The translations under genes and the position numbers were made by a program. Of a stretch of 64,000 nucleotides of DNA, positions 1,433 to 61,205 are shown piece after piece; position 1 is the first letter of the stretch; each line of letters starts with the position of its first letter. This stretch comes from Acidobacteriota bacterium (GTDB lineage Bacteria > Acidobacteriota > UBA4820 > DSQY01). Location of the stretch: positions 22,430 through 86,429 of the forward strand of contig JBMFSH010000010.1 of the NCBI GenBank assembly GCA_049967655.1, in the 5' to 3' direction. The notes beneath the pieces are model-generated. The model searched no databases. It was not told the DNA's origin and saw nothing but the letters and a program-made list of their open reading frames with translations.

Positions 1433-3607
1433 ATGGGGCGGCTGCTGATCGTATCCAACCGGCTCCCGGTGACCGTCAAGGCCGAAGAAGAGGAGTTTCA
1501 GATCATCCCCTCCGCCGGAGGCCTGGCTACCGGCATGCGGGGACCGCACGAAAGCGCCAATTCCCTATGGATCGGCTGGCCGGGCGAGTTGCCGCGGTTG
1601 AGCGAGGCCCGCCGCGAGCAGTTGGAGCAGAGGCTCGCCGAGTTCCGGACGGTCCCCGTCTACCTGAGCCAGGCGGAGGTCAACCGCTACTACGAGGGCT
1701 TCGCGAACGGCGTCCTCTGGCCCCTCTTCCACTACCTCACGGACCGTGTGCGCAGCGATGCCTGGAGAGATTGGCAGGCCTACTCCGAGGTGAACGAGCG
1801 GTTCGCCCAGCGGGTGGCCGCCGAATACCGGCCCGGAGATACGGTATGGGTTCACGACTACCAGCTCTGCCTGGTGCCGGTCCTCCTCCGGCAGCTCGTG
1901 CCTGAGGCCCGCATAGGCTTCTTCCTCCACATCCCCTTCCCTTCGTCCGACGTGTTCCGCATCGTGCCCTGGCGGACGGAGATCCTGGAGGGCATCTTGG
2001 GCAGCGACCTGGTGGGCTTCCATACCTACCCCTACCTTCGCCACTTCAGCCGCTCGCTCAACCTCTTGCTGGGGGTGGAGCCCGACGGCGAAAGGCTCGT
2101 GTACGCCAACCGGGAGGTGCGCCTCGGCGTATTTCCCATGGGCATCGACGCGGCCAGGTTCTCCGCCCTCGCCCAAAACGCCGAGGTGGCGGCCGAGGTC
2201 AAGTCCATCCGGGAGGAGCTGGGAAAGCGCAAGCTCCTGCTCGGCGTGGACCGCCTGGACTACACCAAGGGACTCCCCGAACGCATGCTGGCGATGGAAC
2301 GGCTTCTGGAGCGGGAACCTTCGTGGAGGGGCAAGATCCGCTTTATCCAGGTGGTCGTTCCCTCCAGGACCAAGGTGGAATCCTACAAGGCCTTCCGCCG
2401 GAACCTCGACGAGCTCGTGGGGCGGGTGAACGGACGGTACGCCACCATTGACTCGGTGCCCATTCACTACCTCTTCCAGTCCGTGTCGGAGCACCAGCTC
2501 GTGGCGCTCTACCGCGCGGCAGACGTCATGCTCGTGACGCCGCTGCGGGACGGCATGAACCTGGTTGCCAAGGAATTCGTGGCTTCGCGATCGGACGGGG
2601 ACGGCGTTCTTGTCCTGAGCGAGTTCGCCGGGGCCGCCGCCGAGCTCGCCGAGGCTCTCCAGGTCAATCCGTACGACGCGGACGCGGCGGCCAGGGCCAT
2701 GTACCGGGCTCTGACCATGCCCAGGGAGGAGCGCCGGACGCGGATGGAGGCGCTTCAGAGGAGGGTGTTCACCTACGACGCCTACCGGTGGGCGGACACC
2801 TTCTGGAAAAAGCTCCAGGAGCCCCCCGCGGCCGAGGTGGACCGCATGCTCTCTCCCCCAGGCCTCATGCAGGAACTGGCCGCCCGCTTGCGCGCGGCGA
2901 AACGCCTGGTGCTCATCCTGGACTACGACGGGACCCTCGCGCCCTATGCCAGCTCGCCCCAGCTCGCCGAACCAGACGCGGAGCTAAAGCGCCTGCTCAA
3001 GGCCCTCGGATCCCGCCCAGGCACCTCGGTTCACGTCGTGAGCGGACGCTCCCGCGAGCTCATGAGCCGATGGTTTGGCCGATTGACGCTGGGGCTCCAC
3101 GCGGAGCACGGGTTCTGGTCCAGGCTCCAACCGGGGGGCGAGTGGAGGCCCCTGAAGGTGCGTGCTCTCGATTGGAAACGCCGGATCCTCCCGCTGATCG
3201 AGCTGGCGGCAACGCGGACGCCAGGCTCGCTGATCGAAGAGAAGACGGCGGCCATCACCTGGTACTACAGGATGTCCGATCCGGAGCTGGGGGCCCGCCG
3301 GTTCGAGGAGCTCAGGCTCCTGCTGGAGAAAGAGGCCAGCGGCCTGCCCCTGGAGGTGATGACCGGTCCCAAGTCTCTGGAAATCCGCGTGCGTGGCGTC
3401 CACAAGGGGGCGATCCTGGACCGCCTCGGGGCCAAGCAGGGGATCACACTGCTGGCCATGGGGGACGACGCGACCGACGAGGATCTCTTCGGAGCGCTCC
3501 CCCCGGGCGGTACCGCCGTGCACGTGGGCAGAGGGCCGAGCAGCGCGGCTTACCGGGTGGCCGACCCTGCCGCCGCACGGAGTTTTCTCGCCTCCCTCCT
3601 GGGGTGA
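1433..3607 (+). CDS. otsA: Bifunctional trehalose-6-phosphate synthase / trehalose-6-phosphatase (OtsA-OtsB fusion)
   Basis: N-terminal GT20 motifs ([31 protein letters not shown]). C-terminal HAD phosphatase motifs ([21 protein letters not shown]). AAGGAGG SD upstream. Confidence 0.9.
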
Positions 3608-3716
3608 TGGGGGATGATGGATGACAGATGATCGATGAAGGATGGGCGGCGGTTGCAGCCCTTCACTTTTAATTTTCTTATTCCCGTTCCGCCATCTGCC
3701 TGCCATTCGCTCACCG
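3603..3716 (+). repeat. Heptamer array (GATGNNN)x6 followed by a pyrimidine-rich 7-nt periodic arm
   Basis: GATG recurs at 3606, 3613, 3620, 3627, 3634 and 3641, exact period 7. From about 3662 the + strand turns pyrimidine-rich (TTCACTT TTAATTT TCTTATT ...). The array starts at the otsA stop codon. Confidence 0.75.
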
Positions 3717-3758
3717 GCACCGGAGGGGGCCCTGGGCACTGGAATTTCCTCCAGATTG

Positions 3759-3767
3759 TGTTATAAC
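3759..3767 (+). promoter_or_regulatory. Possible extended -10 promoter (TGtTATAAC) for the RRM-protein gene
   Basis: TG-n-TATAAC lies in a locally AT-richer patch about 230 nt upstream of the CDS. No good -35. By-eye match to the sigma-70 consensus only. Confidence 0.3.
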
Positions 3768-3995
3768 TATCCAAGGCCATGGGTGCCGAAGGATGTCTGT
3801 GGATGAAGCTTAGTGGTGCAAGTGGATCTCCGGCTCCCGTGCCTTTGGAGGCACGCCCCGATTCGTCCAGCGATTCATACGGTGTGGAAATGGTGCGGCG
3901 CCCCCCGCGGGTGCGGGGATGGGTGAAGCCGTGTTTGGCTTCGGCCGGTTCGGGACGGTCCGGTCGGAGAGAGCGGGTTTGAAAAGGGAGGTGTT

Positions 3996-4553
3996 ATGTC
4001 CGTCCGGCTGTTTGTAGGGAACCTCTCCTACGATGCGACTGAAGAGGAATTGAAGGCGCTGTTTGCCGCTGCGGGTCCCGTGGCCCACGTCCATCTTCCT
4101 AAGGACCGTGAAACGGGGAGGCCGAGAGGCTTTGCTTTCGTGGAGTTCCTTGAGAAATCGCAGGCGGAGGAGGCCATCAGGCGCTTCAATAACCAGGATT
4201 TCAAGGGCCGGCCCATGGTGGTCAACGAAGCCAGGGCCCGGGAGGCGGGCGCGGCTCCGCGCCCCTACGCGCCCAGACCCTTCTCGCCGCGTCCCTCGTC
4301 GCCGCGCCCCGACTGGAGCCCCGCTCCCGTGGGCGAGGAGGAGGAGGGGAAGCCCCGCGGCATCCGCAGGACCTTCGGCGGAGCGGAGAACGGCCCCCAC
4401 AAGAAGAAGCGCTACGATAAGGGCGAACGGGTTCCCAAGGGGCCCATCCGGGAACGCCACAGCGGCCGTTTGTACGACATCGACGACGCCGAGGATGACG
4501 TCGAGTGGGAAGGCGACGACATCGCCAGGCGCGCCGACGACGAGGAGGAATAG
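3996..4553 (+). CDS. RRM-domain RNA-binding protein with a long Pro/Arg-rich then acidic C-terminal tail
   Basis: RNP2 LFVGNL and RNP1 RGFAFVEF motifs. Strong SD GGGAGGTG. 185 aa. Confidence 0.88.
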   Translation: MSVRLFVGNLSYDATEEELKALFAAAGPVAHVHLPKDRETGRPRGFAFVEFLEKSQAEEAIRRFNNQDFKGRPMVVNEARAREAGAAPRPYAPRPFSPRPSSPRPDWSPAPVGEEEEGKPRGIRRTFGGAENGPHKKKRYDKGERVPKGPIRERHSGRLYDIDDAEDDVEWEGDDIARRADDEEE

Positions 4554-4557
4554 GCCC

Positions 4558-4911
4558 TCACTCGTCCTCGTCCCCCTCCTCCGGCTGGAGGAGGAAATCC
4601 TCGATGAGCTCGATCAGGGCATCCAGCCGCTGGATTCTCGTGGGGTCCGTCGCGCGGTTGGCCTGCACGGACAGGTAGCCGGCGATCTCCTCCCAGTCCT
4701 CTTCGGAGAAGGCCACCAGCAGCTTCCCGCCGCGCACCGCGACGGCCCTCAGCTCATCGGCGATTCCCAACTCCTCCCCGGCCTCCCTCAGCAGCGTGTC
4801 GCGCTCGCGGGGCGTCAACTCCATCTCGAGCTTCGGCGGCTCCTGGGGCACTTCGGTCTCGTCCACGGCTTCCGCACCTCCCGACGGGCCCCGGGTGGCA
4901 CCCCGAGGCAT
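4558..4911 (-). CDS. Hypothetical acidic protein (start codon uncertain)
   Basis: GC3-rich open frame convergent with the RRM gene, with stop codons 4 nt apart. No recognisable motif. An internal Met (MELTPRER...) is an alternative start. Confidence 0.5.
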   Translation of the reverse strand: MPRGATRGPSGGAEAVDETEVPQEPPKLEMELTPRERDTLLREAGEELGIADELRAVAVRGGKLLVAFSEEDWEEIAGYLSVQANRATDPTRIQRLDALIELIEDFLLQPEEGDEDE

Positions 4912-5106
4912 TCCGGTGTCATCTTATCTCCGGTAAGAATGGACCGTCCAGGATTCGCGCTGGCGCCGCGCCGGGGGAGTGAAAGGGTCCGTGGGCTCGC
5001 GAATCCTCGCCAGGGGGGCGGAATCGGGGAGGGAGCGTGCAGCTCGTAACGAATCTCTTCTCGGACGTTTCGCTGGCCCAGCTCGCTGGCCGCTCCTTTC
5101 ATCGAG

Positions 5107-5185
5107 GCTGGAGCTGAGCCGCGCAAGCAAGTGGCAGCAGCTCAAGGAGACGCAGGACGCGAGATGCAAGACGCAAAGGCGCGCT
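5107..5185 (+). repeat. 8-nt periodic purine-rich tract (CAAGGAGA CGCAGGAC GCGAGATG CAAGACGC AAAGGCGC)
   Basis: In-phase octamers upstream of tex, followed by CCCCAGT CCCCCAGT. More degenerate than the other arrays. Confidence 0.45.
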
Positions 5186-5309
5186 CCCTTCCCGGTCCCA
5201 TAGTGCCCCAGTCCCCCAGTCACACGCCTGCGAAATTCCCCTTCCGCCGTCCCTCTGCTATCCTATCGCGCGGCTCGCGTGGGCGGGCCGCCCTCTGGGA
5301 GCCGACGCC

Positions 5310-7586
<2,277 letters not shown>

Positions 7587-7683: not shown

Positions 7684-7760
7684 GATAATGGATGATGGAT
7701 GATCGATTAGCAGCGACCATCCTTTCACTTTTTACTTTTCACTTCTATCCCCTCCCTTCC
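7684..7760 (+). repeat. Heptamer array GATAATG GATGATG GATGATC GATTAGC followed by a pyrimidine 7-nt periodic arm (TCACTTT TTACTTT TCACTTC TATCCCC TCCCTTC)
   Basis: GAT recurs at 7684, 7691, 7698 and 7705. The mirrored pyrimidine arm spans 7724-7758. Lies between tex and era. Confidence 0.7.
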
Positions 7761-7816
7761 AGCGCCCATTGTGCATCGAGCCCCATGCGAGGATACTGCA
7801 ACCATTGGAGGGACGC

Positions 7817-8704
7817 ATGCGCAGCGGCTTCGTGGCGGTGGTGGGGCGGACTAACGTGGGCAAGTCCACCCTGGTGAACGGCCTGGTGGGTGAGAAGGTG
7901 GCCATCGTGACCCCCAAGCCCCAGACCACGCGAAACGTCATTCGCGGCATACTGAACGAGGCGCGGGGACAGGTGGTCTTCCTCGACACCCCGGGGCTCC
8001 ACAAGCCTCGCACGAGGATGAACCAGACCATGGTGCGGCAAGCGCTGGAATCGGTGGAGGGGGTGGACGCCGTCCTCTGGATGGTTGATGCCTTGCATCC
8101 CTGGCAGGCCGAGGAGGAGCGGCTGGCCGCCCACCTGGGCGAGGCCGGCCGGCCGACGGTCGTGGCCGTGAACAAGATCGACACCCTCGGCTCGAGAGAA
8201 TCCGTGCTCCCCGTCCTGTCGGACCTGGCCGCGCGCCTGCCGGGATGCACGCTCTATCCGCTGAGCGCGCTGGATCCCTCGCACTTCCCCGGCTTGCTGG
8301 ATCTCCTCTTTCCGCTGCTGCCCGAAGGGGAGCCGCTCTTCCCCTCCGAGCTCTACACCGACCAGCCGGAGAGGCAGCTCGTGGCGGAGGTGGTCCGGGA
8401 GCACGTCTTCTCCCACACCTTCCAGGAGGTGCCCCACTGCGTGGGGGTGCTGGTGGAGAGCTTCGAGGAGGCGGCCCAAGAGGGGGGCAAGGTGACCCTC
8501 CACTGCGCCATTCTGGTGGAGCGAGAGAGCCAGAAGCCCATCCTCATCGGCAAGGGGGGACAGAACCTCAAGGCCATCGGCATGGGTGCGCGCAAGGAGC
8601 TCCAGCGCATCCTTGGCTGCGGCGTGGAGCTGAGGCTCTTCGTGAAGGTCAGGCCCGACTGGCGGGAGGACGCCTCCATCCTCCGCGAAATGGGACTGGC
8701 GTGA
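7817..8704 (+). CDS. era: GTPase Era
   Basis: SGFVAVVGRTNVGKSTLVN (G1), DTPG (G3), NKID (G4) and a C-terminal KH domain. GGAGGG SD lies 4 nt before the ATG at 7817. The ORF-track start at 7769 looks like an extension. Confidence 0.92.
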   Translation: MRSGFVAVVGRTNVGKSTLVNGLVGEKVAIVTPKPQTTRNVIRGILNEARGQVVFLDTPGLHKPRTRMNQTMVRQALESVEGVDAVLWMVDALHPWQAEEERLAAHLGEAGRPTVVAVNKIDTLGSRESVLPVLSDLAARLPGCTLYPLSALDPSHFPGLLDLLFPLLPEGEPLFPSELYTDQPERQLVAEVVREHVFSHTFQEVPHCVGVLVESFEEAAQEGGKVTLHCAILVERESQKPILIGKGGQNLKAIGMGARKELQRILGCGVELRLFVKVRPDWREDASILREMGLA

Positions 8705-8766
8705 GAATGGACGCTGGGAGACGACGAAGCAGGGAAGCAGGGCGAAGAGAACCGAAGGCACGGCGG
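8703..8766 (+). repeat. 8-nt periodic purine tract (… AAGCAGGG AAGCAGGG CGAAGAGA ACCGAAGG CACGGCGG)
   Basis: In-phase octamers directly after the era stop. The GAAGAG..GAAGGCACGG string resembles the arrays at 24177-24200 and 26345-26400. Confidence 0.5.
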
Positions 8767-8800
8767 GCTGCCCTCGAAGACGAGGCAGGCCCACCGTGCC
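8757..8800. terminator. Long imperfect GC hairpin between convergent era and cytochrome c genes (possible bidirectional terminator)
   Basis: GGCACGGCGGGCTGCCCTCG-AAGA-CGAGGCAGGCCCACCGTGCC. No U-tract on either side. Confidence 0.35.
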
Positions 8801-8832
8801 GTTGAGCGGTTGCGGCTTTCCGCTTAGTGGCC

Positions 8833-17084: not shown

Positions 17085-17108
17085 GGCCCGCTCCCGTTCA
17101 GCCAGACG

Positions 17109-17193
17109 CCTAATCGCTTAATCGCCTAATCGCTTAATCGCTTAATCGCCTAATCGCTTAATCGCCCAGTTACCTCGTCACCGAGCCCCCTCA
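17109..17193 (-). repeat. Octamer array (TAATCGCY)x7 on + strand (GCGATTAR on the coding strand), plus a GATGATGAGGGGG-type tail
   Basis: Units start at 17111, 17119, 17127, 17135, 17143, 17151 and 17159. Lies in the 109-bp spacer between the fadB stop (17194) and the ACAD-SCP2 start (17084). Confidence 0.9.
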
Positions 17194-20615: not shown

Positions 20616-20676
20616 TGCTATCCCCCATCCATAGGCAACCGGGCCAGCGTCCGAATCCGCGCGGAGCTGCCACTCT

Positions 20677-20705
20677 TTTGTATGCGCCCCGCGAGGGGGT
20701 GTCAA
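20677..20705 (-). promoter_or_regulatory. Predicted sigma-70-type promoter TTGACA-N17-TACAAA for the fadA operon
   Basis: Minus strand reads TTGACAccccctcgcggggcgcaTACAAA, about 60 nt upstream of the fadA ATG. By-eye consensus match. Confidence 0.5.
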
Positions 20706-20730: not shown

Positions 20731-20865
20731 CCCTCCCTCCATCGCCCAATCGCTCAATCGCTCAATCGCTCAATCGCTCAATCGCCTAATAGCTCAATCG
20801 CTCAATCGCCTATAGCTCAATCGCTCAATCGCCTAATAGCTCAATCGCTTCTTCGCTCCATCTCC
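20731..20865 (-). repeat. Octamer array, 13 core units (CAATCGCT / CAATCGCC / TAATAGCT) with a 24-nt higher-order repeat
   Basis: Units run in phase from 20747 to 20849. One 7-nt unit (TATAGCT at 20811) is the exception. The block CAATCGCT-CAATCGCC-TAATAGCT occurs three times. Degenerate in-phase flanks on both sides. Confidence 0.92.
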
Positions 20866-23680: not shown

Positions 23681-24070
23681 CTACGGGGCCACCGTGGCCC
23701 CGTGCTCGCGGAGGAGCTCCCGAAGCACCGACCGGTGACAGTGGGATTCGTCTTCGCAGTAGCAGCCCACGGAGAGGTTCGTCTGGTGCGAGAGGGCGGC
23801 CAGCAGCGCGAGCAGGCGCTCGGCCTCCGGCCGCTTCATCTCGGCCCGGTAGCGCCGCTCGAAGGCCCGCCAGGCCCGCTCGTCGGTCGCCTGTTGCGCC
23901 TCCTTCACCAGCTTCTCCGAGGGGGCCAGCTCTGGCAGCCACGCGTCGTAGAAGTCCCGCGAGGCGTGCTCCGCCTTCGGCACCCCCCGCGGCGGCCGCC
24001 GCACCGTCCCCAGCCTCAGCCCCTCGCCCTCCGCCCTTGGGCTTCCTAGCCGCACCACCCGGATCGCCAT
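23681..24070 (-). CDS. DUF488 (YeaO-like) family protein
   Basis: MAIRVVRLGSPR…DAWLPELAPSEKL…CYCEDESHCHRSVL pattern. The track ORF start at 24196 is an extension. Confidence 0.7.
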   Translation of the reverse strand: MAIRVVRLGSPRAEGEGLRLGTVRRPPRGVPKAEHASRDFYDAWLPELAPSEKLVKEAQQATDERAWRAFERRYRAEMKRPEAERLLALLAALSHQTNLSVGCYCEDESHCHRSVLRELLREHGATVAP

Positions 24071-24146
24071 GGCAACCTCCTCCTCCCCGCCTCCGTCTGG
24101 CCACACTATAGCGCAGGAGGGGCGGGGAGCGAGACGCGCGCAAGGG

Positions 24147-24414
24147 TTCACCACGGAGGACGCGGAGAGCACGGAGGAAGAGGGGCGAGGAGGCACGGGG
24201 GCGATGAAGCGATTAGGCGATTAAGCGATTAAGCGATTAAGCGATGAAGCGATGAAGCGATGAAGCGATTAAGCGATGAAGCGATGAAGCGATTGGGCCA
24301 TGAGGCGATTGCGTGATGAGGTGATGAGGTGATGAGGTGATGAGGGCGCGGGGAGGCCTTCGAAGGCGGCACGCTGAACGGCTGCCTTCTTCGCTCCTTC
24401 ACTCCCTTCACCCC
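24147..24414 (+). repeat. Longest array: TTCACCAC head, 24 in-phase octamers (24153-24344), palindrome GCCTTCGAAGGC, then a mirrored pyrimidine arm
   Basis: Units drift from GCACGGAG to GCGAGGAG, GCGATGAA, GCGATTAA x3, GCGATGAA x3 and on to GTGATGAG x4. Palindrome at 24356-24367. Pyrimidine arm CCTTCTTCGCTCCTTCACTCCCTTCACCCC at 24385-24414. Confidence 0.92.
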
Positions 24415-24596
24415 GTGTAGGAACGCTCTCCGGAGCGCGATGGCTTCCAGCCGAGCAGGGGCGCACTTGGGAGCCGGCTGTAGGCGTCGGCCACGCCGGT
24501 CGCGGCCTGGCCCTTCTTCGGCGGACACGGCTTCGCCCGAGGCGCTGAAACCGGATCGCCCGCTCCTCCGTCCAAGGGACCTGAAGGAGGATTCCC

Positions 24597-26344: not shown

Positions 26345-26426
26345 TTCATTCATCCCGCTTCGTGCCTCGGTGGTAATTCTTCTTTCCCCTCTTCTCTCCG
26401 TGCTCTCCGTGTGCTCCGTGGTGAAT
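26345..26426 (-). repeat. Copy of the TTCACCAC-CGGAG… array element (purine strand is minus)
   Basis: Minus strand reads TTCACCACGGAGCACACGGAGAGCACGGAGAGAAGAGGGGAAAGAAG…GAGGCACGAAGCGGGATGAA. The first about 40 nt match 24147-24185 with 2 substitutions and 1 indel. Lies just 3' of the aroF stop. Confidence 0.8.
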
Positions 26427-32686: not shown

Positions 32687-32720
32687 GGGACTGCTCCTTC
32701 GCAACAGACGGCCGATGGGG

Positions 32721-32820
32721 CGAGATTCCGAGATGCCGAAATGAGGAGATGAGGTGATGAGGGGATGAGGAAAGACAGAGGCGCGGGCTGGCAGTATTCC
32801 CGCATCTCGGCATCTCGAAA
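32721..32820 (+). repeat. Octamer array (CGAGATTC CGAGATGC CGAAATGA GGAGATGA GGTGATGA GGGGATGA GGAAAGAC) bracketed by an 18-bp imperfect inverted repeat
   Basis: Left arm is ATTCCGAGATGCCGAAAT at 32724-32741. The right arm reverse complement is ATTTCGAGATGCCGAGAT, at about 32803-32820. Lies in the 139-bp trpE-trpG spacer. The purine strand is antisense to the operon. Confidence 0.85.
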
Positions 32821-32825
32821 TCCCG

Positions 32826-34253: not shown

Positions 34254-34283
34254 CTTCGCATCCTCCGCCCGCCCTCGCGGGCA

Positions 34284-34313
34284 CAAAAAAAGGCCCACCG
34301 TTTCCGGTGGGCC
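34284..34313 (-). terminator. Intrinsic terminator acting as the trp attenuator (GGCCCACCG-GAAA-CGGTGGGCC-TTTTTTT)
   Basis: Perfect 9-bp GC stem, GAAA tetraloop and U7 tract on the minus-strand transcript. Lies between the leader ORF stop (34337) and the trpE ATG (34253). Confidence 0.85.
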
Positions 34314-34336
34314 GGGTGTTTGGCGAATGGTGGCGC

Positions 34337-34423
34337 CTAGGCGGCCGCCATCCTCTCGCGCACACCCAGCCCGCCGTACCACCAATAGTTCATGTTGGTC
34401 GTCGCGATCTGGGTGTACGCCAC
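34337..34423 (-). CDS. trpL: trp operon leader peptide with tandem Trp codons
   Basis: GGAGGAAGG-N5-GTG, then AYTQIATTNMNYWWYGGLGVRERMAAA and a stop. TGG TGG at 34379-34384. An alternative ATG start at 34393 would give MNYWWYGG…. Confidence 0.7.
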   Translation of the reverse strand: MAYTQIATTNMNYWWYGGLGVRERMAAA

Positions 34424-34444
34424 TTCTGCCTTCCTCCAGGCGAG

Positions 34445-34473
34445 AGGATAGGCCAAAGTAGTGCTGCTGTCAA
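34445..34473 (-). promoter_or_regulatory. Predicted trp operon promoter TTGACA-N17-TATCCT
   Basis: Minus strand reads TTGACAgcagcactactttggccTATCCT, about 20 nt upstream of the leader GTG. Confidence 0.55.
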
Positions 34474-34486
34474 GAGGGGGAGCTTG

Positions 34487-34580
34487 AATTCGGAAGGTGG
34501 AAGGAGAAGATATAAACCACCAAGACACCAAGGCACTGAGGAATTGGGATTTGAGAATTGGGGAAACCCAGGCGAGGGCT
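34487..34580 (+). repeat. 8-nt periodic purine tract containing the 21-nt core ACCACCAAGACACCAAGGCAC
   Basis: GGAAGGTG GAAGGAGA AGATATAA ACCACCAA GACACCAA GGCACTGA GGAATTGG GATTTGAG AATTGGGG. The core at 34516-34536 is identical to the reverse complement of 59042-59062. Confidence 0.85.
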
Positions 34581-34672
34581 CCCACACCGGCGGGAAATCC
34601 ATCGCCGAATTTGGGCGTCCAGCATCTCGCGGCCCGCGACCAGCGACGCGGCAGCTGTTTTCAGGCCGGCGT

Positions 34673-45487: not shown

Positions 45488-45550
45488 GATTTCTCCAGCG
45501 AAGGGTTGGGCTTGAGGCGACGGGGCGGGGGATGGGGCGGATGGGCCCGG

Positions 45551-45720
45551 TAAGCGATTAAGCGATTAGGCTATTAGGCTATTAGGCTATTAGGCTATTA
45601 GGCTATTAGGCCATTAAGCGATTGGACTAGGGGGCTAGGAAAGGGGATGGGCGATTCGGCCATCCCCCGCCCGCTCGGTTCCCTCATCGCCTCATCACCT
45701 ATTCGCTCATCCTCCCTCGC
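45551..45720. repeat. Head-to-head array pair in the hslV-hslU spacer
   Basis: Left arm is 12 in-phase + strand octamers at 45551-45646: TAAGCGAT x2, TAGGCTAT x5, TAGGCCAT, TAAGCGAT and degenerate units. Central hairpin is GGGGATGG…CCATCCCC at 45643-45667. Right arm is a mirrored pyrimidine arm at 45681-45715 whose minus strand reads GAGGATGA GCGAATAG GTGATGAG GCGATGAG. The right arm overlaps the hslV stop at 45707. Confidence 0.9.
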
Positions 45721-47578: not shown

Positions 47579-48598
47579 ATGCGAGCTTTCGAGATCCAAT
47601 CCCAATTCGGCCTGGACAACCTGAGGCCGGCCGAGCGTCCCGACCCCTCGCCCGGCCCCGGGGAGGTGCTCGTCGGCGTGAGGGCCTGCTCTCTCAACTA
47701 CCGGGACCTGATGACCGTCCTCGGCACCTACAACCCCAAGCAGAAACTGCCGCTGGTGCCCTGTTCGGACGGGGCCGGCGAGGTGCTGGCGGTGGGGGCC
47801 GGGGTGCGCCGATTCAAACCCGGCGACCGCGTGGCGAGTATCTTCTCGCAGACGTGGCTGGCCGGTCCGCCTAGCGGGGCGGCCCGCAAGGGCACGCTGG
47901 GGGGACCGATGGACGGGATGCTGCGAGAGATGGCGGTGCTCTCCGAGGAGGGGCTCGTCGCGCTTCCGGGCCACCTCTCCTTCGAGGAGGGGGCCTGCCT
48001 GCCGTGCGCGGGCCTCACCGCGTGGAACGCCCTCTTCGGCGGCGAATCATCCCTCAAGCCGGGGGACACCGTCCTGGTGGAGGGGACGGGCGGGGTCTCC
48101 ATCTTCGCCCTCCAGTTCGCCCGGATGGCGGGCGCCCGGGTCATCGTGACCTCATCGAGCGACGAGAAGCTCGCACGCGCCAAGGCGCTCGGAGCCTGGG
48201 CCACCATCAACTACTCCTGGGAGCCCGAGTGGGACCGCGGCGTGCTGGAGCTGACGGGCGGCGAAGGGGTGGACCACGTGGTCGAGGTGGGCGGCGCCGG
48301 GACCTTTGAGAAGGCGCTCAAGGCGGTGCGCATCGGAGGGTCTGTCAGCGTCATCGGCGTTCTCTCGGGCGCCAAGACGGAGGTGGCCCTCACGTGGATC
48401 CTCATGAAGAGCGTGCACCTGCGCGGCCTCTTCGTGGGCAGCCGGGCCCTCTTCGAGGAGATGAACCGCGCCGTGGGCGAGCACAGCCTCAAACCCGTCG
48501 TGGACAAGGTCTTCCCCTTCGAGCAGGCGGGAGAGGCCTTCCGCCTCATGCAGAAGGGCGGACACTTCGGGAAGATCGTGGTGGGGGTGGGGAAGTAA
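47579..48598 (+). CDS. Medium-chain (zinc-type) alcohol dehydrogenase / NADPH:quinone oxidoreductase family protein
   Basis: GEVLVGVRACSLNYRD, GDTVLVEGTGGVSIFALQFA. AAAGGAG SD favours the second ATG at 47579 over 47573. Confidence 0.85.
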   Translation: MRAFEIQSQFGLDNLRPAERPDPSPGPGEVLVGVRACSLNYRDLMTVLGTYNPKQKLPLVPCSDGAGEVLAVGAGVRRFKPGDRVASIFSQTWLAGPPSGAARKGTLGGPMDGMLREMAVLSEEGLVALPGHLSFEEGACLPCAGLTAWNALFGGESSLKPGDTVLVEGTGGVSIFALQFARMAGARVIVTSSSDEKLARAKALGAWATINYSWEPEWDRGVLELTGGEGVDHVVEVGGAGTFEKALKAVRIGGSVSVIGVLSGAKTEVALTWILMKSVHLRGLFVGSRALFEEMNRAVGEHSLKPVVDKVFPFEQAGEAFRLMQKGGHFGKIVVGVGK

Positions 48599-48638
48599 GG
48601 AAGTGAGGAAGAAAGGAAGTGAGGAAGAAAGCGGAGAT
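48591..48638 (+). repeat. Octamer array GGAAGTAA GGAAGTGA GGAAGAAA GGAAGTGA GGAAGAAA GCGGAGAT
   Basis: The first unit contains the TAA stop of the dehydrogenase (48596-48598). The array ends 6 nt before the AKR ATG. Confidence 0.88.
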
Positions 48639-49110: not shown

Positions 49111-49150
49111 CGAAACGGCGAAACGCGGAAACGGAGAGATGGAGAAAGGG
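49111..49150 (+). repeat. Octamer array CGAAACGG CGAAACGC GGAAACGG AGAGATGG AGAAAGGG
   Basis: In-phase units beginning 3 nt after the AKR remnant stop. Confidence 0.75.
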
Positions 49151-49202
49151 AGCCTGCCTGGACGGGTAAATCCGCCCTCCCGAGCGGCGCCCCACGGGAT
49201 GA

Positions 49203-51525: not shown

Positions 51526-51554
51526 ATGATACCCCCCCGCCCGTGCGGTGGCAA
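51526..51554 (-). promoter_or_regulatory. Predicted fumarase promoter TTGCCA-N17-TATCAT
   Basis: Minus strand reads TTGCCAccgcacgggcgggggggTATCAT, about 50 nt upstream of the ATG at 51473. Confidence 0.5.
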
Positions 51555-51555
51555 G

Positions 51556-51656
51556 GCGCCCCAATCCCGCGTTGGAACGGGGGAAAGAACATGGAAAGCA
51601 AGCGGAACAAGCCGTTGAAGAAGAGGCCCTTGTCACCTATCAAGGGATTGGGGTGC
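51556..51656 (+). repeat. Purine-rich 8-nt periodic tract enclosed by a 13-nt inverted repeat (GCGCCCCAATCCC / GGGATTGGGGTGC)
   Basis: Arms at 51556-51568 and 51644-51656. The interior reads GGAACGGG GGAAAGAA CATGGAAA GCAAGCGG AACAAGCC GTTGAAGA AGAGGCCC. Confidence 0.7.
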
Positions 51657-55015: not shown

Positions 55016-56958
55016 CGGAGCCGAAGAGCTGGGGACCTCAAGAGCTGACGAGTGCCGTGAAAAAGGCGGCCAAGGGGATGGCGGGCCTCGTGCTGGCCGC
55101 GGCCGCGCTGCCCATCCTGGCGGCTGGCCTTCCGCCGCAATACGCCGGGAGCCCCACCGCCAAGGACTATCCGCACGCCGACGTGCTCGTCCTCTCGGAG
55201 AGCCGCGACTTCACCTTTCTGCCCGACGGGCGCCAGGTCGAGAAGGTCAGACGCGTGGAAAAGATCCTCACCTACCAAGGGATGGACGAGACGGGCGACC
55301 CGAAGGTCTCCTTTAACAAGAGGGAGCAGGAGCTCTCCATCGGCCGCTGCCGGACCTACACCGCCGACGGCCAAACCGTGGACGCCAAGGCCAACTCCTT
55401 CAACGAGATGACCCCCTTCGAGCTGGAGAGGGCTCCGGCCTACACCGACTGGCGGCAGATGGTCATCACCAAGGTGGGGCTGGACATCAACTGCGTCGTT
55501 GAGCTGGAGTACACCCTCACGGACAAGCGGCCGTGGCGCCGCTATCTGGAGGGGGTGGAGCGGTTCGAGGATCAGGACCCGGCCCTGGAGCGGAGCGTCT
55601 CCGTCACCGTGCCCGAGGGCACTGCGCTTCGCTACCGTCTCTTCAACGCCCAGGCGGAGCCCGTGGTGACCCGGACGGGCGGCGCCGTGACCACTACCTG
55701 GACCCTGCGCCGCGTCCCCCTTGCGCCTCCCGACGAGATGGGGTCTCAGGAGAGCGACTTCCTGCCCACGCTGGTGTTCACGACCTGTCCGGGCTGGGGA
55801 CAGGAGTCATCGGCCATCGGCGGGCTGGTGGCCAAGGCGGAGGCGGCCACCTCGCCCCAGCTCACGAAGAAGGAAGAATCTCTCCTGACGGGCGTCCGAA
55901 CCCCCTTCGAGAAGATTGTGGCGCTCAGCGCCTACGTGGCCGACGATATCAACACAGTACGCTGGCCGCTTCGGGACTTCGATTTCGCCCCCCGGGGTGC
56001 CGCCGAGGTCTACGACTCGGGTTACGGCAACGCGCTGGACAAGGCCGTCCTCCTCTGCGCCATGCTCAAGGGGGCGGGGATCGGCGCGGCGATTTGGGCG
56101 GGGCGGCGGAGTGTGCCGGGCGGGCTCGATCCCGAACCGGTTCCCTGCATGGCCCAGATGAACGCGGTGCTGGTCCGGGTGGAGGGCGCCGGAGGCCCTC
56201 TCTGGCTCGACCCCACGGCCAGCCTGTCTCAACGATCGCAGCGGGACTTCGCCGGGTTCAAAGGCCTGCTCCTCGGGGGCGGCTCGGACGATCTGCAACC
56301 CCTGCCCCCCGTAGGCGGGACAGACCGGCTCGAGGCCGACCTCGAAGCCACCGCCGCTGCCGACCTGTCCCTGGAGGGCAAAGGCCTGATCACCCTGTTG
56401 GGCCGCTACAGCCCCTTTTACGCGGTCCAGGGCGACGAGAAGGCTCAGCGGAGCTACCTTGCCGCCTTCGTGGAAGGTCTGCTTCCGGGGAGCGAACTGA
56501 CGGACTGCGCGGTGGTGAGGCTGGAGCCGCAACAGGGCGTCTTCCGGGTCCTCTTCAAGACGCCGGCCCCCAAGGCCGAGGCCGGCATCCGCGCGCTCTC
56601 CACGGGGCTGCCGGGCGAATCCCTCCTGGCCCGGTATCCGTCGAGTTACCTTGGTGAGAGGACGATTCCCCTGGTGCTGAGGGGCAGCGGAAAGGAGCAC
56701 TTCGTGCTGCGCATCACCCTCCCCGAGGGAGCCGGACCCCTCTACCTACCGAACCATGTCCAGGTCTCCAGCACGGCGGGAAACTTCACGCAGAGCTGGG
56801 GGGCCGACGGGAGGATTCTGACGATGGACGCTGCGGCGGAGATCCCTGGAAGGATCATCCAGCCCAAGGATTATGAGGCCTGGAGGGATCTCTTCGGGAT
56901 CGCCAACGCCCAGGCCGAGCGCTGGGTGCTGTTCGGGAGTGAGGAAGTGAGGAAGTGA
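55012..56958 (+). CDS. DUF3857 / transglutaminase-like paralogue lacking catalytic Cys and His
   Basis: ATGA overlap with the upstream gene and the same architecture. The Cys position reads GYGNALDKAVLLCAML and the His position reads QMNAVLVRVE, while LWLDPTA is retained. Confidence 0.7.
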   Translation: MTEPKSWGPQELTSAVKKAAKGMAGLVLAAAALPILAAGLPPQYAGSPTAKDYPHADVLVLSESRDFTFLPDGRQVEKVRRVEKILTYQGMDETGDPKVSFNKREQELSIGRCRTYTADGQTVDAKANSFNEMTPFELERAPAYTDWRQMVITKVGLDINCVVELEYTLTDKRPWRRYLEGVERFEDQDPALERSVSVTVPEGTALRYRLFNAQAEPVVTRTGGAVTTTWTLRRVPLAPPDEMGSQESDFLPTLVFTTCPGWGQESSAIGGLVAKAEAATSPQLTKKEESLLTGVRTPFEKIVALSAYVADDINTVRWPLRDFDFAPRGAAEVYDSGYGNALDKAVLLCAMLKGAGIGAAIWAGRRSVPGGLDPEPVPCMAQMNAVLVRVEGAGGPLWLDPTASLSQRSQRDFAGFKGLLLGGGSDDLQPLPPVGGTDRLEADLEATAAADLSLEGKGLITLLGRYSPFYAVQGDEKAQRSYLAAFVEGLLPGSELTDCAVVRLEPQQGVFRVLFKTPAPKAEAGIRALSTGLPGESLLARYPSSYLGERTIPLVLRGSGKEHFVLRITLPEGAGPLYLPNHVQVSSTAGNFTQSWGADGRILTMDAAAEIPGRIIQPKDYEAWRDLFGIANAQAERWVLFGSEEVRK

Positions 56959-56980
56959 GGAAGTGAGGAAGTTGAGGAAG
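56934..56980 (+). repeat. Octamer array (GAGGAAGT)x4 plus TGAGGAAG
   Basis: Units at 56941, 56949, 56957 and 56965. The last codons and the TGA stop (56956-56958) of the upstream CDS are made of array units. Confidence 0.9.
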
Positions 56981-57095
56981 ACGGCCTCGTGGGCCGCGTG
57001 CTTGCTCCCGCTGATCATCCCGCATCCGGGTGGCCTCAAGATGAGATGGCTGAGAAGGGCGGGACGGTGACCAGGGGACCCGGCGGGACGGCGGC

Positions 57096-57854: not shown

Positions 57855-57917
57855 CGGCGCGGTGCGGCTGAGCGCCCTTGCCGGCAGGCCAGGGAACGTA
57901 AAGGAGCCGAGGGGGGC

Positions 57918-58415
57918 CTATCGCTTGAGTACCTCGACCACGGTGACCTGGCCGAAGAGCCACTTCCCGTGCCTCTTGTGGAGGGTACACTTCACCTCGT
58001 GGGTCTCGCTCACCGAGCCGCCGTCCGTGAGAGTCCCCGTGATACTGGCCGTAGCCGCCACCCGGGCCGTGTGCTCCTCGGGGAAGCGGATGTCCAGGTC
58101 GTAGAACTTCAGGGAGAGCTTGTTGAACCGGGCGCGGCCGGCGAAGTAGTAGCGGGTGATCTCCTGAGGCGTGACGGTGCCGCTGAGGTCGTACTTTGGA
58201 GCCTCCCAAGTGCACTCAGGAGCAAAGAACTCGTCGGCCTTGGTCGCCTCGTTCACCAGGGTCAGGTTGCCCTCGGGTCCGTCCTTGGAGACCCACTCCG
58301 AGAGGGAGCTGAACTGCCGTTTCACCTGCCGGGTGCGCGAGGGGAAAAGGGTCCAGACGGCCCAGGCCGCCAGAAGAACGGCCAGAGCGGCGAGGACCTT
58401 CTTGCGTGTTACCAT
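57918..58415 (-). CDS. Membrane-anchored hypothetical protein (possible NTF2/SnoaL-like fold)
   Basis: N-terminal TM KKVLAALAVLLAAWAVW followed by about 140 aa. Its start overlaps the lepB stop by 7 nt. Confidence 0.6.
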   Translation of the reverse strand: MVTRKKVLAALAVLLAAWAVWTLFPSRTRQVKRQFSSLSEWVSKDGPEGNLTLVNEATKADEFFAPECTWEAPKYDLSGTVTPQEITRYYFAGRARFNKLSLKFYDLDIRFPEEHTARVAATASITGTLTDGGSVSETHEVKCTLHKRHGKWLFGQVTVVEVLKR

Positions 58416-58903
58416 AGGGGAACTCCCACAATCCGCCGGAGCGACACCTGGCCGAAGTCGTGCTGCTCCATGGGCATGCTCCGGTTGTCGCCGACGACGT
58501 AGACGTGACCCGGCTCCACCGTTCGGGGTGGAAGGTTCCAATCGCAGGGCCCCTTCACGTAGGGCTCCGCCACGGGACGGCCGTCCACCAGGAGCACGCC
58601 CTCCTTGAATGCCACCGTCTGTCCCGCCAGCGCCACGATGCGCTTGAGGTAGACCACGTCCTCGCCCGCCAGGCGGATGGCCACCACGTCGCCGCACCGC
58701 GGTTTCGAGTAGAGGTAGTGGGGCTTCCAGAGGAAGTCGAACCCGCCGTCGCGATAGGTGTTTTCCATGCTCTTTCCCCGGATCACGAAAGGGGTGCAGA
58801 CGAAGCCGAAGAAGCCGTAGGCGCTGAGCGCCACCAGGACCACCCGGAGCAGGTAGGCGGGGGTGAGGGAGGGGAAGAGAAAGCGCCGCAGCCGTTCGTC
58901 CAT
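58409..58903 (-). CDS. lepB: Signal peptidase I
   Basis: RGKSMENTY (Ser box), VVYLKRIVALAGQ (Lys box) and VVGDNRSMPMEQHDFG. The start is ambiguous between 58903 and 58930. Confidence 0.85.
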   Translation of the reverse strand: MDERLRRFLFPSLTPAYLLRVVLVALSAYGFFGFVCTPFVIRGKSMENTYRDGGFDFLWKPHYLYSKPRCGDVVAIRLAGEDVVYLKRIVALAGQTVAFKEGVLLVDGRPVAEPYVKGPCDWNLPPRTVEPGHVYVVGDNRSMPMEQHDFGQVSLRRIVGVPLW

Positions 58904-58960
58904 CCGAATGGGCCAGCCTTCAGCTCCCATGGTAGTTGAGGGAGATCTACCGCGGCAAGG

Positions 58961-59068
58961 GGGGAGGATGATTGCGGGTGATGGATAGTTGCGGCATGAA
59001 TCCCAAACCACAAATCCAAAGCCGCAATCCTCAATTTCTTCGTGCCTTGGTGTCTTGGTGGTGAATCT
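58961..59068. repeat. Head-to-head array pair: + strand GGAGGATG ATTGCGGG TGATGGAT AGTTGCGG, then minus-strand TTCACCACCAAGACACCAAGGCACGAAGAAATTGAGGATTGCGGC…
   Basis: The two arms share GAGGAT..TTGCGG on opposite strands. 59042-59062 is the reverse complement of 34516-34536 (21/21). The patch is locally AT-richer. Confidence 0.85.
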
Positions 59069-59146
59069 TTGTTCTTACTGGTTCGGCTTTGCGAATACCG
59101 AAAAGCTCGCCGCTGTGCTATCCTTCTCACTTCGCGGAGGTTTCCC

Positions 59147-59920
59147 ATGACCGAAGACACCTTGGTGATCGCGGGACGACGGTTTTCGAGCCGGCTCTTT
59201 CTAGGGACCGGGAAATACAAGGACAACGAGACCATGGCGGCGGCCTTGGAGGCCTCGGGGGCCGAGGTGATCACCGTTGCCGTCAGACGCGTGGAGCTGG
59301 ACCGGAGCAAGGCCTCCATGCTCGATTTCATCGATCCCAAGCGCTACTTCCTGCTCCCCAACACGGCCGGCTGCACCACGGCCGACGAGGCCGTCCGGAC
59401 CGCCCGCCTGGGGCGCGAAGTGGGCCTCTCCAACTGGGTCAAGCTGGAGGTGATCGGCGACGAGAGGACCCTCTTCCCCGACAACGAGGGTCTGCTCGAA
59501 GCCACCCGGACCCTCGTGAAGGAGGGTTTCGTGGTGCTTCCCTACACCAACGACGACCTGGTGAACGCCAAGAAGCTGAGGGACGCGGGCGCCGCCGCCG
59601 TCATGCCCCTGGGCGCGCCGATCGGGTCGGGCATGGGCATCCAGAATCCCACCAACATCTCCATCATCAAGGAGTTCATGGACGTTCCCGTGATCGTGGA
59701 CGCCGGCGTGGGCACGGCCAGCGACGCCTGCCGCGCCATGGAGCTGGGCGTGGACGGGGTTCTCATGAACACGGGGGTGGCCGGCGCCAGGGACGCCGTC
59801 CTCATGGCCGCCGCCATGAACAAGGCCGTGCGGGCCGGGCGCGAAGCCTTCCTGGCGGGCCGCATCCCCATGAAGCGCTACGCCACCGCCTCCAGCCCCG
59901 CCGAGGGCCTGGTTCGCTGA
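59147..59920 (+). CDS. thiG: Thiazole synthase
   Basis: [42 protein letters not shown] upstream. Confidence 0.93.
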
Positions 59921-60028
59921 GGAGGCTTGACGGGGCTCCGAGGGGCCCCAATCCGGGATGGCCCCGGATCGGTACGGTTGTGCATCGCGGTCTGGCGACC
60001 GCTCCTACTCAAAGAAGGGGAGATGCCC

Positions 60029-61168
60029 ATGATCAGCTACGAACTCTCGAAGGAACAGCTGGCACTGGTGGAGAAGAGCAAGGACTTCGCCGACCGCGTC
60101 ATGCGCCCGGTGGCGCGGCAGTACGACGAGTCCTGCGAGTTTCCGTGGCCCGTCGTCCAGAAGGCCTACGAGGAGGGGATCGTCAACGGCGCCATCCCGA
60201 AGGAGTACGGCGGGGCGGGCCACAGCTCTCTGGAGGGATGCCTCGCGAGCGAGGAGCTGGGCGCGGCCTGCTCGGGCATCGGCATCTGCATCGACGCCAA
60301 CAACCTGGCCCTCACGCCGCTCCTGGTGGGCGGTAGCGACGAACTGAAGAAACGGATCTTCGGGCAGCTCGTGGAGAGCCGCGGATTGGCGGCCTTCTGC
60401 CTGACCGAACCCGAGGCCGGCTCCGATGCGGGGGCGGTGAAAACCACGGCCGTGCGACAGGGCGACAAGTACGTCATCAACGGCAAGAAGCGCTTCATCA
60501 CCAACGGCAAACAGGCCATGATCCACACGGTCTTCTGCAACACCGATCCGGGGCGCGGCGCCCGGGGCATGTCCGCCATCGTGGTGCCTACCGACACGCC
60601 CGGTGTGGTCATCGGCCGCGAGCTGCCCAAGATGGGCCAGCGCGCCTCCTGCCAGGTGGAGATCGAGTACCACGACGTGGCGGTCCCGGTGGAGAACGTG
60701 ATCGGCAAGGAGAACCAGGGCTTTATCATCGCCATGAAGACCTTCAACCGCACGAGGGCCGGCGTGGCGGCGGCGGCGGTGGGGATGGCGCGGGAGGCCT
60801 ACGACGTGGCGAAGGCGTGGGCGCTCAAGCGGCGGCAGTTCGACCAGCCCATCGTAGCCTTCCAGGGCATCTCCTTCATGTTTGCGGAGATGCTCACCAA
60901 GATCACGGCGAGCCGCTTCCTCGTCTGGAACGCGGCCATCCTGACGGACCAGGACAAGGAGGTCGGCACCTACAGCGCCATGGCCAAGTATTACGCCACC
61001 GACACGGCCATGGAGGTGGCCACCAACGCGGTCCAAATCATGGGCGGCGACGGCTACTCCAAGGACTTCATCGTCGAGAAGATCATGCGCGACGCCAAGC
61101 TCTCGCAGATCTACGAGGGGACCAACCAGGTCCAGCGCTTCGTCATCGCCAAAAACACTCTGAAGTAG
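60029..61168 (+). CDS. Acyl-CoA dehydrogenase (short/medium-chain, butyryl-CoA dehydrogenase-like)
   Basis: 379 aa. CLTEPEAGSDAG, QIMGGDGYSKDF and IYEGTNQVQ motifs. Confidence 0.9.
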   Translation: MISYELSKEQLALVEKSKDFADRVMRPVARQYDESCEFPWPVVQKAYEEGIVNGAIPKEYGGAGHSSLEGCLASEELGAACSGIGICIDANNLALTPLLVGGSDELKKRIFGQLVESRGLAAFCLTEPEAGSDAGAVKTTAVRQGDKYVINGKKRFITNGKQAMIHTVFCNTDPGRGARGMSAIVVPTDTPGVVIGRELPKMGQRASCQVEIEYHDVAVPVENVIGKENQGFIIAMKTFNRTRAGVAAAAVGMAREAYDVAKAWALKRRQFDQPIVAFQGISFMFAEMLTKITASRFLVWNAAILTDQDKEVGTYSAMAKYYATDTAMEVATNAVQIMGGDGYSKDFIVEKIMRDAKLSQIYEGTNQVQRFVIAKNTLK

Positions 61169-61173
61169 CCTTT

Positions 61174-61205
61174 GGAAGGACGAGATGAGGTGATGAGGTG
61201 ACGCA
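61174..61205 (+). repeat. Short octamer array GGAAGGAC GAGATGAG GTGATGAG GTGACGCA
   Basis: Starts 6 nt after the ACAD TAG stop. Same GTGATGAG unit as 24313-24344. Confidence 0.7.

Follow-up and report, generated by a model that had tools for sequence, protein, structure and literature searches.

Strand-polar intergenic arrays of 7- to 9-nucleotide tandem repeats in an Acidobacteriota genome and their turnover among relatives

Introduction

Long simple repeats with units of 5 to 11 nt have been catalogued in bacteria since 2007. Their intergenic position, their convergent pairing, and the outward direction of their G-rich strand are rules that have no accepted explanation. Here, we describe tandem arrays of this kind in a 64-kb stretch of contig JBMFSH010000010.1 (positions 22,430 to 86,429; assembly GCA_049967655.1) from an uncultured Acidobacteriota bacterium, hereafter the window. 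The window is ~68% G+C and ~88% coding (56 kb of coding versus 7.8 kb of intergenic DNA), according to a gene map that was built from codon usage and verified with Pfam.

The class was defined by Mrazek et al. in 2007 as long simple sequence repeats, LSSR(5-11), which, in the account given in PMC4679880, are tandem repeats of 5- to 11-nt units that include octamers. Its typical hosts are free-living organisms or opportunists with large genomes. Huang and Mrazek (2014, PMC4060949) report the 7n3 and 8n3 patterns as the classes of simple repeat that are in excess in prokaryotes. A slippage origin has been proposed for LSSR(5-11), both in PMC4060949 and in what PMC4679880 relates of the 2007 work. 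Rehm et al. (2015; PMC4692102) described G-rich heptamers, GGGAATC in Xanthomonas and GGGGA(T/C)T in Nostoc, of which 68 to 93% are intergenic. Each Xanthomonas genome has 70 to 75 convergent heptamer pairs, and in both genera the heptamers lie on the coding strand 0 to 50 bp past stop codons (stop overlap included) and on the non-coding strand just before starts. Their position is conserved across species, length and sequence vary, and the function is "still to be elucidated" (PMC4692102). Direct repeats of the heptamer TAACTGA are found in marine Beggiatoaceae, cyanobacteria, and Bacteroidetes (MacGregor 2015, PMC4679880), and Geobacter metallireducens carries paired tandem octanucleotide sites (GTTGCTYN x4 and TWGTTGAY) on opposite strands (PMC2700814).

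A literature search for octamer repeats in Acidobacteria yielded nothing specific. The short tandemly repeated repetitive (STRR) sequences of heterocystous cyanobacteria have the units CCCCAGT, TTGGTCA, and CAACAGT, and we take the Nostoc GGGGA(T/C)T repeats to be of the STRR1 type.

Results

Tandem arrays in intergenic DNA

Arrays were detected with Tandem Repeats Finder and with lag-match scans, both stringent and lenient. The stringent scan returned seven period-8 segments in the window and none in 30 dinucleotide-preserving shuffles; across periods 2 to 15, the only other segment was a single one at period 9. The lenient scan returned 14 intergenic segments of period 8 and 3 of period 7, compared with means of 0.1 and 0.075, respectively, in shuffled spacers. 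A single period-8 segment was assigned to the 56 kb of coding DNA, and only through its overlap with a stop codon. In the same scan, periods 3, 6, 12, and 15 were exclusively or mostly in coding DNA. At other loci, outside the window, 119 arrays were intergenic and 16 were coding. A first-pass annotation of the window had described recurrent, strand-asymmetric arrays between its genes, a claim that would fail if shuffles gave a similar period-7 and period-8 signal or if coding DNA had the arrays equally; the scans show neither, and the feature was confirmed at most of the loci that it listed.

The periods reported by Tandem Repeats Finder were 7, 8, and 9, with copy numbers from 2 to 18. About nine arrays are strong and six are weak, and the density is ~1 strong array per 9 kb. 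Strict period 8 is clear at 17107-17165, 20737-20849, 24201-24345, 32721-32771, 45551-45623, 48587-48631, 49111-49152, and 56938-56980; the period-8 array at 61184-61201 is short, with about two copies. The arrays have a G+C content of 38 to 50% in a 68% G+C genome, and one strand is G-skewed; the pyrimidine strands are C-rich and almost free of G (e.g., CTCATCAC, ACTTCCTC, and CTCAATCG). The idea of one window-wide family had to be abandoned, as units differ widely, from GCGATTAA to GAGGAAGT and CGAAACGG, and form no single sequence family. An xGATKAx core is common to at least eight loci in the window (e.g., GCGATTAA, GCGATTGA, and GTGATGAG).

Polarity and convergent pairing

In 19 of the 23 array segments of the window, by hand count, the 5'-to-3' direction of the G-rich strand leads away from the nearest open reading frame (ORF). 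Arrays at gene 3' ends are G-rich on the coding strand, and for arrays at 5' ends the G-rich strand is the non-coding one. The earlier statement that the purine strand equals the coding strand therefore holds near 3' ends and fails near 5' ends. Four arrays (3603, 45682, 48587, and 56938) contain a stop codon. When two arms are paired, a G-rich arm is followed by a C-rich arm on either strand; all eight pairs in the window, weak arms counted, are convergent in this way. The two arms often have unrelated units and even different periods.

Relatives gave 11 segments with the G-rich strand pointing away from the nearest ORF and 2 with it pointing toward the ORF. One contig scan with the pattern GCGATNNN x4 recovered at least 120 loci, which belong to many phyla; because GCGAT is built into the pattern, the scan cannot single out such a core as special. 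Among the matches listed, pattern-matched loci of many phyla pointed away in 46 cases and toward in 14 (p = 4e-5). Pairs at independent loci were convergent in nine cases and divergent in none (p = 0.004). Array-free spacers had no such G skew, which indicates that the polarity belongs to the arrays and rules out general spacer composition as its source.

The polarity was kept in units without GGG (24 away and 9 toward). When arrays were sorted by stop codons, the ratio of away to toward was 31:4 where the G-rich strand carries stops, 25:13 where neither strand does, and 11:1 where both do. Two candidate bases for the polarity were rejected on these counts. G-runs are absent from most units, and the G-quadruplex idea put forward for Xanthomonas and Nostoc is insufficient, given that units unable to form G-quadruplexes keep the polarity. 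A role as all-frame stop-codon insulators was likewise discarded, since the polarity persists without stops on either strand and with stops on both, though it is stronger with stops on the G-rich strand.

Array catalogue

The arrays of the window are given below with their coordinates and strand. Arms of a pair that were detected together share a line.

3602-3644, + strand: period-7 array, GGATGAT-like, ~5 degenerate copies; its start falls within the final codons and stop codon of the otsA/otsB-fusion gene; called by Tandem Repeats Finder at 3612-3644
5148-5221: divergent spacer with a weak pair, convergent; AGACGCA x4 (5148-5176, G-rich on +) and CCCAGTCC x3-4, G-rich on - (5191-5221)
7684-7744: heptamers in a convergent pair, tex-era spacer; GATGATG x3.4 as the + arm (7684-7707) and TTTCACT x3, G-rich on - (7723-7744)
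8726-8742, + strand: weak octamer GAAGCAGG, 2 copies, 21 nt past the era stop codon
17107-17165, - strand: (GCGATTAR) x7.4, Tandem Repeats Finder unit CGCTTAAT; spacer from fadB to acyl-CoA dehydrogenase
20737-20849, - strand: (GCGATTGA) x14, Tandem Repeats Finder unit CTCAATCG; just upstream of the thiolase operon promoter
24147-24180, + strand: period-9 TCACCAC-GGAGGACGC-GGAGAGCAC-GGAGG, upstream of the promoter of a DUF488 gene; conserved in relative L077 (see below)
24201-24345, + strand: largest array, ~18 octamers drifting through GCGATGAA, GCGATTAA, and GTGATGAG
24389-24411, - strand: opposed pyrimidine-rich arm, CTTCACTC-like, beyond a conserved GC-rich hairpin (24346-24388)
26394-26425, - strand: period-9 CACGGAGAG x3 with a TTCACCAC head, 15 nt past the DAHP synthase stop and G-rich on the coding strand of that gene
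32721-32817: convergent pair between trpE and trpG; GAGATGAG-type x4-6 as the + arm (32721-32771) and GCATCTCG x2, G-rich on - (32802-32817)
34487-34536: weak pair, GGAAGGTGGAAGGAG and then CACCAAGA x2.4, directly upstream of a - strand promoter-like TTGACA-17-TATCCT
45551-45623, + strand: (GCGATTAA)2-(TAGGCTAT)5-(GCGATTGG) in the hslV-hslU spacer, adjoining the hslU start; called by Tandem Repeats Finder at 45557-45623, unit ATTAGGCT, 7.5 copies
45682-45711, - strand: opposed arm that overlaps the stop codon of hslV; CCTCATCG on + and, on the coding strand, GCGATGAG-type
48587-48631, + strand: (GGAAGTRA / GGAAGAAA) x5, GGAAGTAA-type in Tandem Repeats Finder; holds the TAA stop of a zinc alcohol dehydrogenase gene
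49111-49152, + strand: (CGAAACGG) x3-5, degenerate, called by Tandem Repeats Finder at 49112-49152, unit GAAACGGA, 5 copies; convergent spacer, 3 nt past a stop codon
56938-56980, + strand: (AGTGAGGA) x5.2; holds the TGA stop of a DUF3857/transglutaminase-like gene
59030-59066, - strand: weak TTCACCAC-CAAGACAC-CAAGGCAC (read as the - strand) in a divergent spacer; GC skew ~0, so that the G-rich strand is ambiguous
61184-61201, + strand: short (GATGAGGT) x2.2, 15 nt past a stop; a hairpin and a pyrimidine-rich tract precede the next start codon

Most of these arrays keep the strict 7- or 8-nt phase that the first-pass annotation had described, and its report of gradual unit drift was reproduced at 24201-24345 and 45551-45623. 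The exceptions to the phase are 24147-24180 and 26394-26425, which have period 9 (CACGGAGRR). Because of these two, the rule that the period is never a multiple of three is not strict. Loci placed at 5107, 8703, 34487, and 58961 do contain weak arrays of 2 to 4 degenerate copies, but their starts had been set 20 to 80 nt off. A locus at 51556 dropped out, with no tandem signal in any scan; the R-rich tract there (51556-51606) abuts a -35 hexamer at 51554.

Members of one sub-family share a TCACCAC head (24148-24180 on +, 26394-26424 on -, 34512-34536 on +, 59038-59066 on -, and positions 6257-6287 of L077). The head is followed by either 9-nt units (GGAGGACGC / GGAGAGCAC) or 8-nt units (CAAGACAC / CAAGGCAC). 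Each variant is present in the window as two inverted copies that lie tens of kilobases apart, the motif at 59030-59066 being an inverted copy of that at 34512-34536. A T-rich pyrimidine tract (3661-3700) lies downstream of the 3602-3644 array.

Turnover of arrays among relatives

Three relatives bear arrays in the corresponding spacers. The contigs compared were L077 ("MAG: Acidobacteria bacterium BP9.bin43," a metagenome-assembled genome [MAG]; 85% nucleotide identity over window positions 23681-24447); L201, an ENA contig that is syntenic with the window and whose acyl-CoA dehydrogenase has 93% protein identity; L202 and L203, at 82% for the same protein; and L121, which carries hslVU (hslU is 79% identical).

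The 24201 array aligns in register with its counterpart in L077, and the two differ by a 24-nt indel (exactly three units) and a 17-nt indel. A 24-nt, three-unit higher-order period is present in four arrays of the window (17107-17165, 20747-20849, 24201-24310, and 45557-45623), and together with the 24-nt indel this suggests that turnover goes by three-unit blocks. Point identity is 0.86 within the 24201 array, and third codon positions of the gene beside it give 0.88, which indicates that the unit sequence evolves at about the synonymous rate, with no purifying selection on the units. Both heptamer arms between tex and era are longer in L201, by 14 nt (two 7-nt units) and by 41 nt (~six units). 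Unit-number differences between orthologous spacers, which the first-pass annotation had named as a check, were thus found in L077 and L201. The 60 nt before the era start (7757-7816) are 100% identical between the window and L201. Third codon positions of the two genomes differ by ~10%, and against this background the identity suggests that a leader or regulatory RNA is under strong constraint there; the segment had no Rfam match.

Unit changes were seen at two further spacers. Between fadB and the acyl-CoA dehydrogenase gene, the replacement is array-wide, as GCGATTAR in the window is GCAATTAR across the whole array in L201, and the 26-nt leader is identical; L202 and L203 have five copies of an unrelated octamer (CGGCATCC) instead. 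Upstream of the thiolase operon, the array is (GCGATTGA) x14 in the window and (GGGATKAA) x10 in L201, and L202 lacks one. The promoter of this thiolase-fadB-acyl-CoA dehydrogenase operon, a sigma-70-type TTGACA-N17-TACAAA/G, is kept in all three (window ~20675-20703 on the - strand, L201 ~6380-6410, and L202 ~5130-5160), and the arrays, where present, stop ~30 nt upstream of its -35 hexamer. The GGGATKAA unit of L201 (6255-6338) fits a G3-N5 G-quadruplex motif; as it is orthologous to the GCGATTGA array, the same array can drift into or out of G-quadruplex potential. In L202, an 88-nt direct repeat with a palindrome (GGGAGGGCCACCGTGCCCTCCC), similar to repetitive extragenic palindromic (REP) sequences, is found at 4968-5129 and 8700-8800 and fills spacers in which closer relatives have octamer arrays.

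Between hslV and hslU, the window has 219 nt (45488-45706) and L121 has ~158 nt (5005-5164); for 72 more distant relatives, the median is 16.5 nt. Arrays fill this spacer in both the window and L121, and their units differ. In 819 kb of more distant relatives, we found three strong period-8 arrays, two of them in L121, and eight strong period-7 arrays. The window therefore has ~30 times as many strong period-8 arrays per kilobase, and the preferred period is 8 in this lineage versus 7 in its relatives. Directional growth from one end was rejected as a mode of expansion; at 45551, homogeneity is highest in the interior of the array, and the picture is mixed elsewhere.

RNA structure, terminators, and promoters

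As RNA, the arrays themselves are predicted to lack structure. Of 11 spacers, only two folded better than their shuffles, namely, trpE-trpG (z = -3.1) and hslV-hslU (z = -3.2). In the former (32687-32825), outer CGAGATGC-type units form a near-perfect stem of ~21 to 26 bp that encloses the C-rich octamer array. GC-rich hairpins stand between arms at 24346-24388, 45640, and 61220. The 50 nt beyond arrays had no significant excess of structure over the 50 nt before them (p = 0.17). Comparison with Rfam, which the first-pass annotation had named as a check, gave no match to any Rfam 15 covariance model at gathering score in the whole window, and membership of a known RNA family was rejected. Terminator-like sites were neither enriched at arrays nor coincident with them. 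The 60 kb scanned held two convincing canonical intrinsic terminators, each with a GC-rich stem and a T-run.

37333-37308, - strand: intrinsic terminator after the acrB-like gene
34313-34292, - strand: intrinsic terminator inside the 34254-34672 spacer

These textbook terminators stand apart from the arrays and indicate that the organism does use canonical ones. A hairpin or terminator role for the arrays was rejected, given that most spacers fold no better than shuffles, that the flanks have no excess of structure, and that the terminators lie elsewhere.

At recognizable promoters, the arrays are upstream of the -35 hexamer; no array falls in the interval between it and the -10 hexamer. Array contexts are mixed (upstream of promoters, within operons, and past stop codons), which argues against a single regulatory role.

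Discussion

Origin and maintenance of the arrays

We lean, by a modest degree, toward the view that the arrays are near-neutral slippage products filtered by selection that depends on position and orientation. Repeats of 7 to 9 nt would arise and turn over in non-coding DNA through replication slippage or unequal exchange between units, and unit sequence and copy number would be close to neutral. Mismatch repair removes loops of 1 to 3 nt efficiently and longer loops poorly (PMC4060949); expansions by 7 to 9 nt may be tolerated because their loops escape it. The graded series of three relatives shows turnover directly: indels span whole units, a new unit can replace the old one across an array, and point substitutions run at roughly the synonymous rate. 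The array stays in position between two genes, gains or loses whole units or three-unit blocks, and is swept by new variants. Its sequence is without purifying selection, while neighboring leaders and promoters are under it.

On this model, a position filter would keep arrays out of ORFs, short conserved leaders, and promoter hexamers, and an orientation filter would require the strand that enters the neighboring ORF to be C-rich and G-poor. The latter would leave G-rich strands pointing off ORFs and pairs convergent. A translational basis for the orientation filter is plausible. On the 5' side, G- or purine-rich sense repeats would create Shine-Dalgarno-like motifs and ATG or GTG starts; on the 3' side, a stop-free pyrimidine array over the stop codon would append a junk tail to the protein. 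We infer that the arrays have no dedicated function.

Several observations sit poorly with the slippage-and-filter model. Unrelated units recur at the same spacer (window versus L202 and window versus L121), and given this recurrence the presence of an array could itself be selected. The xGATKAx core is shared by at least eight loci, and in other genomes, too, a single unit family is used again at separate sites (e.g., L096 and L030); this is not predicted by random seeding and fits a sequence-specific factor or dispersal. Polarity at both gene ends and in the stop-free units means that translational filters explain only part of it. Finally, the preference of this lineage for period 8, where its relatives and most bacteria prefer 7, is unexplained by the model.

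Alternative explanations

An alternative that we consider unlikely, but that deserves to be set out in full, treats the arrays as polar gene-boundary elements that span phyla and act on transcripts. Any unstructured, G-skewed repeat of 7 to 9 nt with its C-rich strand running into the ORF would do, and the unit would be irrelevant. The unstructured C-rich strand would be a loading platform for Rho, or possibly for another single-strand RNA-binding protein with a footprint of ~8 nt, and the array would act, for example, as a lattice for Rho or a periodic single-strand-binding protein that insulates genes from read-in and antisense transcription. Such transcription would be silenced, leader transcription would be coupled to translation, and the outgoing G-rich strand would resist Rho. 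The 8 nt seen here and the 7 nt of Xanthomonas and cyanobacteria would then be the footprint of the binding factor or polymerase of each lineage. The strong polarity at ORF ends in many phyla, the predicted lack of RNA structure, the C-rich and nearly G-free pyrimidine strands, the persistence of arrays in the same spacers despite unit change, and the presence of only two convincing terminators in 60 kb all speak for such elements. Unrelated units at one spacer and strictly convergent pairs, even with unpairable arms, are compatible with them. However, some arrays lie upstream of the -35 hexamer and would not be transcribed from the adjoining promoter, C-rich arms before starts within operons (hslVU and trpEG) would give unwanted downstream polarity, and the unit sequence evolves at a neutral rate. 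An action at the DNA level, which we judge improbable, would make the arrays platforms to which a regulator or a nucleoid-associated protein binds, or else AT-rich upstream promoter elements; copy number would tune the expression of neighboring genes like the rheostat of a contingency locus. Their low G+C content in a 68% G+C genome would suit this role, as would the reuse of one unit family across many loci and the promoter-like -35 hexamers that directly follow several arrays (at the thiolase operon, DUF488, and 34473); even the R-rich tract at 51556-51606, though no array, abuts such a hexamer. There are also precedents in the paired Geobacter octanucleotide sites, which are annotated as putative global-regulator sites (PMC2700814), and, reportedly, in an 8-bp variable-number repeat in the clbR region of Escherichia coli (PMC7364221). 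Promoter effects are nevertheless unlikely for the many arrays that are intercistronic or trail gene 3' ends. Units differ widely between loci and are replaced outright at one of them, there is no sequence constraint, and no array lies between a -35 and a -10 hexamer.

The remaining alternatives are held with still less confidence. Opposed arrays might be arms of long RNA or DNA hairpins that serve as bidirectional terminators, as REP-like mRNA-stabilizing stem-loops, or as cruciforms; pairs are convergent as a rule, two spacers (trpE-trpG and hslV-hslU) fold beyond shuffles, and GC-rich hairpins stand between some arms. We regard this as quite improbable: most array spacers fold no better than shuffles, the flanking 50 nt are not more structured, many arrays are single, and good canonical terminators exist elsewhere in the window. 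Paired arms are often unrelated in their units, or differ even in period, and so cannot base-pair; this argues further against hairpins. Least probable of all, and very doubtful in our opinion, is an origin of the array pairs as small non-autonomous mobile elements, similar to miniature inverted-repeat transposable elements (MITEs), inserted in intergenic DNA. This origin would explain why units are shared across loci and phyla. The same unit families do occur at separate loci in one genome, and among the matches listed, GGCGATTR-like octamers were found in Gemmatimonadota, Acidobacteriota, Chloroflexota, Bacteroidales, and Burkholderiales in a scan that was biased to GCGAT. Yet the copies have no conserved termini, target-site duplications, or common flanks, lengths and units vary continuously, and orthologous arrays evolve in place. 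Taken together, the evidence argues against both the G-quadruplex and the hairpin explanations.

A practical consequence concerns gene annotation, in that the arrays inflate operon junctions, and their stop-free pyrimidine tracts may be called as ORF extensions in high-GC MAGs.

Comparison with known systems

The arrays match the described LSSR(5-11) class. They have a head-to-tail unit of 5 to 11 nt, exceed the expectation from composition, and are confined to non-coding DNA at non-triplet periods. As the class is portrayed in PMC4679880 and PMC4060949, they also share its intergenic excess, its exclusion from coding DNA at periods other than multiples of three, and its scattered phylogeny. 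By the same accounts, heptamers are commonest in most genomes, whereas the window has 14 period-8 and 3 period-7 segments; the density here is very high, and uncultured Acidobacteriota are not among the hosts described. The first-pass annotation had held that the arrays could not be assigned to a known family. That view is superseded by the fit to LSSR(5-11), to the 7n3/8n3 patterns (PMC4060949), and to the Geobacter octanucleotide sites (PMC2700814).

Several better-delimited systems resemble the arrays in part. Phase-variable contingency repeats of host-adapted pathogens are similarly prone to slippage and change copy number between relatives. They have units of 1 to 6 nt inside ORFs or between promoter hexamers, where indels switch genes, whereas the units in the window are of 7 to 9 nt and lie outside ORFs (or overlap a stop at most) and not between hexamers. 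REP- or MITE-like hairpins differ from the arrays, in that only 2 of 11 spacers fold, no general hairpin adjoins the arrays, and the arms are mismatched. TAACTGA repeats are likewise abundant intergenic non-triplet tandems, patchy across phyla, with some just before start codons. They consist of a single fixed unit in 2 to 6 copies, mostly a few nucleotides from starts and in the forward orientation, which led to the suggestion of translational control there, whereas the window has diverse units, longer arrays, and mixed positions. The Geobacter sites are also paired intergenic octanucleotide tandems on opposite strands, with many copies per genome. They have four fixed units and a conserved consensus, form a multicopy family found by BLAST, and were read as regulator-binding sites; copy number in the window runs from 2 to 18, and the units drift.

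The cyanobacterial STRR heptamers, which the first-pass annotation had named as the nearest precedent, were a sound choice, since intergenic position, convergent pairing, and polarity match those reported in PMC4692102. The STRR family proper is a different one, as the units in the window differ and the host is an acidobacterium. The Xanthomonas and Nostoc heptamers have the same architecture as the arrays in position, convergent pairing, and polarity. They differ in that the period here is 8, that units such as GCGATTAA, GTGATGAG, and GAGGAAGT have no GGG run and form no G-quadruplex, that many units are used per genome in place of one dominant unit, and that the phylum is another. What is new is therefore the lineage, the predominance of 8-nt units, the density, and the polarity in units unable to form G-quadruplexes. 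The arrays open no new category; they extend the polarity and convergent-pair rules to octamers, to Acidobacteriota, and to other phyla.

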